From assembly GCA_049889775.1 (NCBI GenBank), contig JBMHCT010000021.1:39024-103023 (forward strand): 64,000 nucleotides of DNA. The letters are read 5' to 3'. Shown here in pieces: positions 5,174 through 7,902 of the stretch. Position numbers and translations under genes: made by a program. A model generated the notes under the pieces. The model was not told the origin of the DNA. It saw only the letters and a program-made list of their open reading frames with translations, and made no database searches. The DNA comes from Jejuia sp. (lineage in GTDB: Bacteria > Bacteroidota > Bacteroidia > Flavobacteriales > Flavobacteriaceae). The first letter of the stretch is position 1, and every line of letters begins with the position of its first letter.

Positions 5174-6493
5174 ATGAACGACAATATCATCATAATTTTG
5201 GCAGCTGTAATTTTTGCTGCAATTGGCTTTTTTTTGGGCAATTATTTTTCAAAACTGAAGAATAAGAGCGAACAAAGTAGCTTAGAAGAACGGCAAAATC
5301 AAATGCAGTTGACTATTGATGAGCTCAAACAAAATCTAAATAAAATTGAACAAGAACGTGAAGAAATACGTCGTGAAAAAGATTTTTTAAATACGGAATT
5401 AGCGAGAAAAAATTCAGAATACGAGAATCTACAAGAGCAAAACTTAAAACGCGATAAAGAACTTGAAGAACGGCAGGAGCAATTACGTAAGGATTTTGAA
5501 TTACTTGCTAATAAAATTCTCGAAGAAAAGTCGAATAAATTTACCGAACAGAATAAGGAAAATATTAAGAATATTTTAAATCCGTTACAGGAGAAAATCC
5601 AAGGCTTTGAGAAAAAGGTTGAAGCATCTCAGAAGGAAAGTATTAGTATGCATTCTGCATTAAAAGAACAGTTATTGGGATTGAAAGACCTCAACCAACA
5701 AATGACCAAGGAAGCCACTAATTTAACCCGCGCTTTGAAAGGCGACAGTAAAATGCAAGGGAATTGGGGCGAATTGGTATTGGAGAGAGTTTTGGAAAAA
5801 TCTGGCTTGGAAAAAGACCGCGAGTATTTTGTACAGCAAAGTTTCACTCGTATTGATAATTCTCGTGTTATGCCTGATGTAGTGCTACATCTTCCTGATG
5901 GTAAAAAGATGATTATTGACTCTAAAGTATCATTAACCGACTACGAGCGGATGGTAAATGCTGATGAAGACAGTAGACCGCAATTTTTGAAAGCCCATGT
6001 AAACTCTATCAGAAAACATGTAGAGCAATTGTCGGCCAAGAATTATCAAGATTTATACGATATAGAGTCTCCTGATTTTGTACTCATGTTTATACCTATT
6101 GAACCAGCTTTTGCTGTTGTTGTGAATGAAGACAACACCATTTACAACAAAGCTTTTGAAAAGAATATTGTCATCGTAACACCTGCTACTCTTTTGGCTA
6201 CACTTCGTACTATAGACACTATGTGGAATAATGAAAAGCAACAACGTAATGCCATTGAAATCGCAAGACAAGCTGGCGCACTTTATGATAAATTTGAAGG
6301 TTTGGTAAGTGATTTGACCGGTGTTGGCAAAAAGATTGATGCTGCTAAAAATGATTATTCTGCCGCTATGAACAAGTTAGTTGACGGACGTGGCAATCTC
6401 ATTACCAGTGTTGAAAAACTTAAAAAAATGGGAGCTAAAGCAAAAAAATCACTTCCTGAAGCTATTATCAAACGTGCTGAAGAGGATATATAG
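5174..6493 (+). CDS. rmuC: DNA recombination protein RmuC
   Basis: N-terminal TM helix, coiled coil, QGNWGELVLERVLE, PDVVLHLP..IIDSKVSL nuclease-like core, SPDFVLMFIPIE. Confidence 0.93.
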   Translation: MNDNIIIILAAVIFAAIGFFLGNYFSKLKNKSEQSSLEERQNQMQLTIDELKQNLNKIEQEREEIRREKDFLNTELARKNSEYENLQEQNLKRDKELEERQEQLRKDFELLANKILEEKSNKFTEQNKENIKNILNPLQEKIQGFEKKVEASQKESISMHSALKEQLLGLKDLNQQMTKEATNLTRALKGDSKMQGNWGELVLERVLEKSGLEKDREYFVQQSFTRIDNSRVMPDVVLHLPDGKKMIIDSKVSLTDYERMVNADEDSRPQFLKAHVNSIRKHVEQLSAKNYQDLYDIESPDFVLMFIPIEPAFAVVVNEDNTIYNKAFEKNIVIVTPATLLATLRTIDTMWNNEKQQRNAIEIARQAGALYDKFEGLVSDLTGVGKKIDAAKNDYSAAMNKLVDGRGNLITSVEKLKKMGAKAKKSLPEAIIKRAEEDI

Positions 6494-6502
6494 CTTTCTA
6501 AT

Positions 6503-6578
6503 TATCACATATTAATGTGATAAATTTGTTTATCATACAAATATGTGATATATTTGTTTATCACATAAATACGTGATA
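6503..6578 (+). promoter_or_regulatory. Three tandem 20-bp palindromic operators (TATCACAT-N4-ATGTGATA, 28-bp period) with two embedded TAnnTTTG -7 elements
   Basis: Copies at 6503-6522, 6531-6550 and 6559-6578. TAAATTTG at 6521-6528 and TATATTTG at 6549-6556. The array fills the rmuC-satD intergenic gap. Confidence 0.8.
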
Positions 6579-6580
6579 TC

Positions 6581-7204
6581 ATGATTACAAGTGTTATTAC
6601 TGGCGACATTATAAAATCTCGAAATCAAAATGATCCAAATATTTGGTTAGATACGCTTAAACAAACTTTATCTAATCTCAGTTCAGAAAAAAAATATTGG
6701 GATATTTATAGAGGAGATAGTTTTCAAATAGAAATAAGAGATTATCTAGCTAGTTTTATTTGTGCCGTTTATTTAAAAGCATGTATTAAATCCATAAAAG
6801 GTCTAGATGTTAGGTTAGCCATAGGAATTGGGGATAAAACTTACAATGGAGAAAAAGTATCAGAATCTACAGGCGAAGCCTTTATACTTTCGGGTGAAAC
6901 CTTGGAATCCTTAAAAAAGGAAAAACAAAATTTAAGAGTACAAACTACAAATTTTGATTTAGATCTAGAATTGAATTTATATTTTAAATTAGCTCTAATA
7001 GCTATGGATAATTGGACGGTAAATACGGCGGAGATTGTAAAATTGAGCATTGAAAACCCAGATGCATTGCAAAGTGAATTAGGGAAAATAATTGGTATAA
7101 ATCAAAACGCCGTGAGTATGCGACAAAAAAGAGCTTATTTAAGTGAAATAAATGAACTAGATTTAATGTACAGGGAAAAAATATATGACCATATAACATT
7201 ATGA
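6581..7204 (+). CDS. SatD-family protein (nucleotide-cyclase/palm-like N-terminus plus C-terminal HTH)
   Basis: ITGDIIKSR, YRGDSFQ and VRLAIGIG motifs; C-terminal QSELGKIIGINQNAVSMRQKRA HTH-like segment. Confidence 0.8.
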   Translation: MITSVITGDIIKSRNQNDPNIWLDTLKQTLSNLSSEKKYWDIYRGDSFQIEIRDYLASFICAVYLKACIKSIKGLDVRLAIGIGDKTYNGEKVSESTGEAFILSGETLESLKKEKQNLRVQTTNFDLDLELNLYFKLALIAMDNWTVNTAEIVKLSIENPDALQSELGKIIGINQNAVSMRQKRAYLSEINELDLMYREKIYDHITL

Positions 7205-7902
7205 TTTTAATAAAACTTCTACTCGCCCATATTCTAGGAGATTTCTTTTTACAACCTACCAAATGGGTAAAAGAGAATGAAAAGAAGAAATTAAAATCGC
7301 CTAAGCTCTATTTACACACTCTAATTCACATTACCATTACAGCCATATTGCTTTGGGATATAGCACTTTGGCCCGTGATTTTAATAATCGGTATGTCGCA
7401 TTTAATTATAGACGGATTAAAGTTGTCTTTTCAAAAGAAAAAAACAAAGCGCAGGTGGTTTTTTATAGATCAGGTATTGCACATTTTAATACTATTTGGA
7501 TGCTATTTCCTTATTGTAAAGAATAAAGCAAAATTCGATTTTACCATTACTGAAAATAACTTATTACTTATTACTTGTTTACTGTATTTAACAATTCCAG
7601 TATCCATAATTATGAAAACCATTTTTTCAAAGTGGAATATTTCCAAACTCACGAAAAACAATCAATCCCTAGAAGATGCTGGCAAATATATTGGTATTTT
7701 AGAGCGCGTTTTAGTGTTTATTTTCATTATTGTTAATCATTGGGAAGCCGTTGGCTTTTTAATTACAGCTAAATCTGTTTTTAGGTTTGGAGATTTAAAA
7801 GAATCTAAAACCAGACAACTCACAGAATACGTTTTAATTGGCACTTTAATTAGCTTTGGAATTGCAATACTAACTGGTATATTGTTTACCACATTAACTT
7901 AA
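7201..7902 (+). CDS. DUF3307-family membrane protein
   Basis: AHILGDFFLQ, HTLIH, HLIID and DQVLH motifs in TM helices; C-terminal GKYIGILER..AKSVFRF; ATGA overlap with satD. Confidence 0.8.
   Translation: MILIKLLLAHILGDFFLQPTKWVKENEKKKLKSPKLYLHTLIHITITAILLWDIALWPVILIIGMSHLIIDGLKLSFQKKKTKRRWFFIDQVLHILILFGCYFLIVKNKAKFDFTITENNLLLITCLLYLTIPVSIIMKTIFSKWNISKLTKNNQSLEDAGKYIGILERVLVFIFIIVNHWEAVGFLITAKSVFRFGDLKESKTRQLTEYVLIGTLISFGIAILTGILFTTLT

Follow-up and report, generated by a model that had tools for sequence, protein, structure and literature searches.

Phased palindromes upstream of a satD-like gene as probable operators of the SatD-like family

The region directly upstream of a satD-like gene in the window (the whole 64-kb stretch of DNA analysed here) carries three 20-bp palindromes of the form TATCACAT-N4-ATGTGATA, which start at positions 6503, 6531 and 6559 according to both the sequence and a repeat finder. 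On comparative sequence grounds these sites can be assigned to the SatD-like family, with whose recognition helix they co-evolve. We consider it quite probable that the palindromes are private operators of the SatD-like protein encoded directly downstream, and that this protein controls its own operon through them by promoter occlusion. An earlier note on this DNA had taken the sites to be the protein's own operators, a reading which is supported by the presence of arrays at 109 of 110 orthologous loci, by co-variation with the recognition helix and by the privacy of the array within the genome. An autoregulator with a phased operator array is an already known kind of system, of which the SatD-like protein would be a further case. 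The new features are the 28-bp variant of the array, the Bacteroidota promoter boxes built into it and a two-residue specificity code.

Sequence and geometry of the array

The first site, O1 (6503-6522, TATCACATATTAATGTGATA), is a perfect 8+4+8 palindrome with 0 mismatches. O2 (6531-6550, TATCATACAAATATGTGATA) and O3 (6559-6578, TATCACATAAATACGTGATA) show 2 and 1 mismatches to O1 respectively, in agreement with the slight degeneracy described previously for copies 2 and 3, and none of the three sites is assigned to a strand. The start-to-start distances from O1 to O2 and from O2 to O3 are exactly 28 and 28 bp. O3 ends 2 bp 5' of the ATG at position 6581, and the array takes up 76 bp of the 87-bp gap between rmuC and the satD-like gene. 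The earlier description of three palindromes which have a 28-bp period, end 2 bp before the start codon and fill nearly the whole intergenic region was therefore accurate. The palindromic character of the sites also holds, but the 8-bp arms of copy 1 do not extend to the family, in which symmetry is found only at positions 1-6 and position 8 is merely T/A-rich. O1 matches the family form, tTAT-nnn-n-T-AAAA-A-n-nnn-ATAa.

As 28 bp corresponds to 2.67 helical turns, neighbouring dimers would be located on different faces of the DNA, and the three sites together span 8.0 turns. Side-by-side cooperativity between neighbouring dimers, in its simple form, is not obvious at a separation of 2.67 turns. 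The three units are also direct repeats of one another, with 76-81% identity over a 21-nt unit (repeat finder), as would be produced by neutral tandem duplication of a functionless 28-bp unit. We give this explanation practically no chance, since symmetry is preserved inside each unit and since the architecture and the exact period persist across the phylum where linkers and cores have fully changed.

Candidate promoters within the array

Two candidate promoters on the forward strand are embedded in the array. The -7 box of P1 (TAAATTTG, 6521-6528) fits the Bacteroidota sigma-A consensus with a predicted start at about 6533, and the -7 box of P2 is found at 6549-6556 (TATATTTG). Both are TAnnTTTG boxes in which the leading TA forms the final two bases of an operator (O1 and O2 respectively), which bears out the earlier observation that such elements overlap the operator ends in both linkers. 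The TTTG at 6525-6528, which is part of the P1 box, sits 20 nt 5' of the P2 box to give TTTG-N20-TAtaTTTG, and under the -33/-7 spacing rule of Bacteroidota promoters it could act as the -33 element of P2. On these sequence features P2 is the better candidate promoter and P1 the weaker one. In flavobacteria the -7 element of sigma-A promoters, TAnnTTTG, spans -12 to -5, and 5' UTRs have a median length of 24 nt (PMC9723704). With its box placed at -12 to -5 in this way, P2 would start at about 6561, which is within O3, and would have a 5' UTR of about 20 nt. A sigma-70 promoter and terminator scan of the region returned nothing useful, as expected for Bacteroidota.

In the window, TAnnTTTG occurs at chance frequency (101 found against 102.7 expected), so the promoter reading rests on position and on comparison across loci and not on the motif count. 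We observed TAnnTTTG within 160 bp upstream in 84 of the 110 orthologous loci, compared with 5 of 110 coding control stretches. In these loci we counted 52 -7 boxes that begin at position 19 of an operator, which is the same position as in the window.

Each operator occupies a distinct part of the promoter region. O1 lies in the would-be -33/-7 spacer of the weaker P1 and its terminal TA is the TA of the P1 box, while O2 lies in the spacer from the -33 TTTG to the P2 box and likewise supplies the TA of that box. O3 spans the predicted P2 start site and nearly the entire 5' UTR. Operators placed over spacer, box, start site and leader argue for repression by occlusion, and autorepression of this type is the likely action of the array. 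We infer binding, cooperativity, switch-like behaviour and repression rather than activation from the positions of the sites and their fixed 28-bp phase.

The SatD-like protein could also bind the array and activate transcription, or have a dual role that involves polymerase recruitment or switching between P1 and P2. Three-site arrays such as lambda OR join repression to positive autoregulation, and in 14 of the 84 box-bearing loci no operator was detected over the most proximal box or its spacer or downstream of the box. The array of the Flavobacterium loci is located at -136 to -33, 5' of the proximal TATATTTG box. On the other side, the operators of the window overlie or flank all promoter elements and the predicted start, 54 of the 84 box-bearing loci have an operator over the most proximal box and its spacer, and the essentiality of satD in an S. 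pyogenes Tn-seq experiment (PMC11323703) suits a repressor better. We regard activation as unlikely.

The SatD-like protein and its operon

The satD-like gene (6581-7204, forward strand) encodes a putative regulator of 207 aa. A predicted palm domain, which takes up about residues 1-121 and in which D9, D46 and D76 are conserved, is joined to a C-terminal helix-turn-helix (HTH). The HTH is encoded at 7070-7132 on the forward strand and consists of a helix (residues 164-171), a turn and the recognition helix (residues 175-184, QNAVSMRQKR). A Pfam and NCBIfam search of the ORF gave nothing except a weak Sigma70_r4 match at residues 161-185, and neither the window protein, even at E <= 10, nor the window's whole genome gave any match to PF16264. 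Among orthologues, 24 of 30 match PF16264 at E <= 0.01, the best at 1.9e-12. A profile of the orthologues aligns with a PF16264-positive clade over its full length (hhalign 97.7%, E 1.4e-12, 197 columns). By these comparisons the 207-aa ORF is a divergent member of the SatD family. The gene name satD that had been assigned to it is upheld by the orthologues and by the profile-profile comparison, but not by any Pfam SatD match of the ORF itself.

The AF2/AlphaFold model (pLDDT 95.7, pTM 0.92) shows an N-terminal beta-alpha-beta domain that is followed by helices with the HTH. For the N-terminal domain, Foldseek returned class III adenylyl cyclase 4wp9, GGDEF 6eib, the Cas10 palm and GTP cyclohydrolase III as structural neighbours, where the similarity is weak with a best E of 9e-4 and a TM of about 0.4-0.5. 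Sequence searches gave no family match of the protein to cyclase, GGDEF or Cas10-type palm families. The residues that are invariant in the first 30 orthologues (T7-G8-D9, R44-G45-D46-F48-Q49, D76, R78, G82 and G84) fall on the strands which carry the metal-binding acidic residues in class III cyclases and GGDEF domains, and the modelled palm domain may bind or convert a nucleotide. Other family members match Sigma70_r4 and HTH families. Based on the confident HTH model and on these matches of its relatives, the SatD-like protein is a predicted DNA binder.

Functional reports on SatD in the literature searched are limited to acid tolerance in S. mutans and to S. pyogenes, in which Tn-seq classed satD as an 'essential accessory gene' (PMC11323703). 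By analogy, this essentiality would fit a partner that is harmful. The same literature yielded no study on function or DNA binding of SatD, DUF3307 or PF16264, and ascribed to SatD neither a DNA site nor an operator array nor a part in regulation, in line with the earlier statement that no SatD binding site had been defined. Neither the SatD-like nor the DUF3307 protein matched PADLOC defence models at E <= 0.1.

The DUF3307 membrane protein gene (7201-7902, forward strand; PF11750, E 4.6e-29) starts within the satD-like gene and overlaps its stop by 4 nt. A DUF3307 gene was observed directly 3' of the satD-like gene on the same strand in 109 of the 110 loci, and in 82 of them its start precedes the last base of the satD-like stop codon by 1 or 4 nt. 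The conserved arrangement makes the DUF3307 protein the likely co-regulated cargo of the operon. The pair is present in 37 of the 61 related genomes sampled, and PF16264-positive relatives were found in other classes of the phylum. The upstream neighbour in the window, rmuC (5174-6493, forward strand; PF02646, E 1.2e-105), provides context only. We found rmuC upstream of the satD-like gene in just 62 of the 110 loci; the array goes with satD.

Arrays at orthologous loci

The 110 loci comprise 30 from related genomes and 80 from named genomes of Flavobacteriaceae, Chitinophagaceae, Balneolaceae, Bacteroidales and Cytophagales. Between one and six TAT-N14-ATA palindromes were found upstream of the satD-like gene in 109 of them, so that repeats comparable to those of the window, whose absence would have spoken against the proposal of the earlier note, are present nearly throughout. 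The exception is a Ginsengibacter MAG (L089), where no palindrome array could be detected within the 260 bp scanned upstream. The spacing of adjacent sites is exactly 28 bp in 183 of 219 cases, and in a further 10 it is 56 bp with one site missed between. The linkers were observed to be wholly different in sequence between lineages and constant in length at 8 bp. Since the sequence has changed and the length has been kept, the period is under selection and not merely a heritage of duplication.

The outer TAT and ATA and the A/T-rich centre are constant across the loci, and the inner half-site triplet was found to be lineage-dependent, with CAC, TCC/GCC, CGT/CGC, CGG, TAC, TAG, CTG and TGC as the observed forms. 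CAC is present in the window, in Algibacter and Flavivirga and in some Chitinophagaceae and Bacteroidales, TCC/GCC occurs in most Flavobacteriaceae, TAC is the Flavobacterium form and an asymmetric AGG/CGG is characteristic of Balneola. More distant PF16264-positive clades were found to have inverted repeats of their own upstream, and in one of them the sites are of the form TGAWACA-N8-TGTWTCA and have a 29-bp period in 17 of 17 spacings. Phased arrays are thus, on this comparison, a trait of the SatD family, with a 28-bp period in the clade of the window. The clade with the 29-bp period (L128, L130-L135, L137 and L140) represents another family of the phylum with the helix ..NR.QIWKRRKTL, and its third TGAWACA-N8-TGTWTCA site reaches the start codon.

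We noticed that the two half-sites are not always equivalent. Many TCC loci (L057-L059, L064, L075, L076 and L080) have TATTCC on the left and GGCATA on the right, with T versus G at position 4, and two Balneola loci (L091 and L093) have TATAGG...CCGATA in every copy. This uncompensated asymmetry suggests either that the dimer subunits are non-equivalent or that the -7 box constrains the sequence.

The same asymmetries bear on whether the palindromes might act as RNA, in which case hairpins in the 5' UTR or in read-through transcripts from rmuC would attenuate or weakly terminate transcription or influence RNA stability. As RNA, the region is predicted to fold more stably than its shuffles (-27 versus -16.6 kcal/mol, z = -3.7), although this is expected of any set of inverted repeats. 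A T-rich linker follows each palindrome and there is no other terminator after rmuC, while the terminator scan detected no terminator-like site between rmuC and the array and none in the array itself. In the array sites as a whole, position 7 pairs in only 80 of 282 and the recurrent non-Watson-Crick pairs at position 4 place T opposite C in 43 cases and form a wobble pair in just 2, which suits a protein site and not a stem; the TATTCC...GGCATA and TATAGG...CCGATA asymmetries recur with no compensation. Furthermore, most sites lie 5' of the predicted start, hairpins need no exact 28-bp phase, the array goes with satD and not with rmuC, and co-variation with a protein helix has no explanation at the RNA level. 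A role as RNA is highly improbable on this evidence.

Co-variation of the operator with the recognition helix

The class of the operator was found to follow the helix motif Q175-x176-x177-[VI]-S-x180-R, and the table of residues against triplets is nearly diagonal. With [DE], A and K at positions 176, 177 and 180, the triplet is TCC in 33 of 35 loci, and with N, A and a small or polar residue (M, N, S, T or G) it is CAC in 24 of 27. N, T and [DE] at these positions go with CG[TC] (9 of 10 loci) and S, S and E with CGG (7 of 9). All 11 loci with A, A and R have TAC, and TAG is present in 4 of 4 loci in which Q occupies position 180, whichever residues are found at 176 and 177. In the window protein the specificity positions are N176 and M180, together with A177, and the triplet in the window is CAC. 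Asn commonly prefers A, Asp and Glu prefer C, and Lys and Arg prefer G. The pairings of residue and triplet seen here (Asn with A, Asp/Glu with C and Lys/Arg with G on the other strand) agree with these preferences.

As a control for shared ancestry, all 169 variable columns of the protein were ranked by the information they carry on operator class. The two highest places go to columns 180 and 176, which are separated by one turn of the helix and have a corrected MI of 1.30 and 1.24, compared with 0.79 for the next column; columns 177 and 174 rank fifth and sixth. In addition, 46 phylogenetically independent pairs were drawn from a tree built without the helix columns. Operator class is different in 11 of these pairs, 7 of which show a difference at positions 176/177 too, whereas only 5 of the 35 pairs with the same class do (Fisher one-sided p = 0.003). 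When the pairs were tested for each class on well-supported branches, 2-5 pairs per class were available, a number at which none could reach significance; for TCC, CAC and CG those pairs in which the helix trait differs as well almost always went the predicted way, the opposite being observed in few of 200 random pairings, and TAC was uninformative. The co-variation of the palindromes with recognition-helix residues that the earlier note had put forward as a check has thus been run with a positive outcome, in the MI ranks, in the diagonal table and in the independent pairs.

Exceptions to the code were observed at L036, which has N176 and TCC sites, at L049, which has N176 with three proximal TCC and two distal CAC sites, and at L035 and L097. 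The family is a clear-cut example of joint change in the specificity of a transcription factor and its operator among orthologues. SatD/DUF3307 is a widespread pair, and the DNA site, the 28-bp geometry and the residue-to-base code make SatD a testable regulator. The different classes would also provide a natural series of orthogonal repressor-operator pairs suited to Bacteroidota promoters.

Uniqueness of the array in the genome

In the 64-kb window, O1-O3 are the sole matches to the site at up to 3 mismatches, where 0.6 would be expected. With up to 1 mismatch, sites in the 3.65-Mb genome were found at the satD-like array only. Four further sites appear at 2 mismatches, of which three lie within long ORFs and have G+C-rich centres, and at up to 3 mismatches the genome-wide number of sites is 39 compared with 38 for a control pattern. 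A wider regulon was rejected on these counts, with the 3-mismatch number at the control level and the 2-mismatch sites mostly inside ORFs. No second CAC-type pair at 28-bp spacing is present elsewhere in the 3.65-Mb genome. The sole other 28-bp pair of the generic TAT-N14-ATA form, at C30:75478, was discarded as a low-complexity coincidence in coding sequence. Across 301 Flavobacteriaceae genera, a phased CAC pair was found in 5 genomes, at one place in each, and the control pattern in none; in the genome of the window, for which alone of the five the neighbouring gene was looked at, this place is the satD array. The array is, from these searches, private to the satD-like promoter, as expected for a local autoregulator.

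This privacy also bears on the proposal that the sites are bound by some other regulator whose gene lies elsewhere, with the satD-like operon as part of its regulon. Compatible with such a regulator would be the TATCAC pairs phased at 28 bp that occur in viral contigs away from any satD-like gene, as well as the mixed arrays which include sites off the local helix code. However, there is no second site or array in the genome and thus no regulon, the operator class tracks the recognition-helix residues of the adjacent protein above its other columns, and the array is found upstream of satD in 109 of 110 loci whichever neighbour gene is present. A separate regulator is very unlikely in our view, and the SatD-like protein itself is the favoured occupant of the array.

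Proposed mode of action

In the proposed mechanism, the SatD-like protein would bind each 20-bp palindrome as a dimer, formed presumably through the palm domain, and set one recognition helix on either half-site. Palm domains commonly dimerise, which suits a palindromic site. Residues 176 and 180 (N and M), together with 177, would read the inner triplet CAC while conserved residues of the helix would contact the invariant outer TAT/ATA. With three dimers placed 28 bp apart, the -33/-7 spacer and the two -7 boxes would be covered, as would the start site and the 5' UTR, and occupancy of the array would exclude RNA polymerase and block read-through from rmuC. The satD-like/DUF3307 operon would then be kept low until the protein leaves the DNA, possibly upon binding of a nucleotide-like ligand by the palm domain. 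We infer the dimer stoichiometry and any such ligand from the fold and the symmetry of the site.

Comparison with known systems

The closest functional parallels in layout are HipB of the hipBA operon in E. coli and lambda CI with OR1-OR3. The hipBA system also combines an HTH autoregulator (predicted in the case of the SatD-like protein) with multiple palindromes and a two-gene operon whose second product is, in hipBA, harmful. The operators of hipBA overlap HipB's own promoter. HipB binds cooperatively to four TATCC-N8-GGATA palindromes (PMC3376134). This format of a TAT-core, N8 and a core-ATA is nearly identical to that of the TCC-class sites at SatD-like loci. No homology between the SatD-like protein and HipB was detected, and HipB, a small antitoxin with an Xre-type HTH, binds the toxin as well, whereas the SatD-like protein is a fusion of palm and HTH. 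The partner is also different, being a DUF3307 membrane protein and not a kinase, and the strict 28-bp spacing is unlike that of hipBA.

As in lambda CI with OR1-OR3, where the arrangement gives autoregulation, three related and imperfectly symmetric sites lie over the promoter of the regulator, and specificity classes, the 'immunities' of lambda, differ between relatives. The TATCAC half-site resembles the lambda operators. The lambda sites measure 17 bp, recur about every 23-24 bp and are placed between two promoters that diverge, whereas the SatD-like sites are of 20 bp with a 28-bp period and a single direction of transcription. Lambda CI carries an S24 peptidase-type C-terminal domain and is not homologous to the SatD-like protein, and the satD-like gene, unlike that of CI, is chromosomal and conserved across the phylum.

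The likeness to SatD/SatE of the S. mutans sat operon (PF16264/PF11750) consists of the SatD-like and DUF3307 gene pair and the full-length profile homology, although the protein of the window is too divergent to reach the Pfam model of SatD. Class III cyclases, GGDEF proteins and the minimal Cas10-like palm proteins (mCpol) resemble the protein in the predicted palm fold of its N-terminal domain, in which D9 and D46 are located on the expected strands, at the level of weak structural similarity. An HTH fused to the palm is unusual in those families.

Hybrid arrays, divergence and viral contigs

Hybrid arrays, in which two operator classes are phased together at 28 bp, were observed at twelve loci (L019, L022, L024, L027, L031, L049, L055, L061, L072, L078, L081 and L083) and sit 40-180 bp 5' of the satD-like start. 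At L081, for example, three TCC sites are followed by three CAC sites, and most congeners of the window have one or two distal CAC sites and three proximal TCC sites. The proximal class usually agrees with the helix code, with L049, L036 and L035 as the cases in which it does not. The hybrid loci that came from whole-genome searches (L019-L031) have a single satD-like gene per genome. The simple model leaves two operator classes per array unexplained where there is only one satD-like gene.

The SatD-like protein was also found to diverge faster than its neighbours. Within the genus its identity is 60-69%, compared with mostly 90-96% for RmuC and 72-80% for DUF3307 (L016-L090), and the protein of the window is closer to the CAC-class Algibacter and Flavivirga proteins (72-78%) than to most of its congeners. 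This pattern in the sequences points to either rapid evolution or exchange of alleles that comprise both regulator and operator. An idea that we hold to be improbable is that SatD-operator pairs are fast-diversifying private specificities written in the 176/180 code, that hybrid arrays are traces of switches between them, and that the diversification is driven by invaders through two-site arrays on phages or mobile elements. If this were true, viral arrays could titrate a scarce autorepressor and free the DUF3307 protein for a guard-like or abortive response. As an alternative to titration, phages might borrow the host repressor.

A search of IMG/VR returned TATCAC-N8-GTGATA-N8-TATCAC with a 28-bp period in 15 viral contigs of about 7-8 distinct families (L152-L166). 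No satD-like gene is present at these viral loci. SatD-like genes in viral contigs amount to 4 distant matches with 27-30% identity, none of which is beside a phased pair. Phased pairs of the TCC type, which were found at 28 bp in 51 viral contigs and at 29 bp in 5, were rejected as evidence, with about 40 of the 51 representing one redundant coding sequence. The viral TATCAC pairs are intergenic and several are located between tRNA-His and tRNA-Gln in repeated tRNA-Pro/His/Gln arrays. The same TATCAC pattern was also observed at a 27-bp and at a 29-bp period, in 1 viral contig each.
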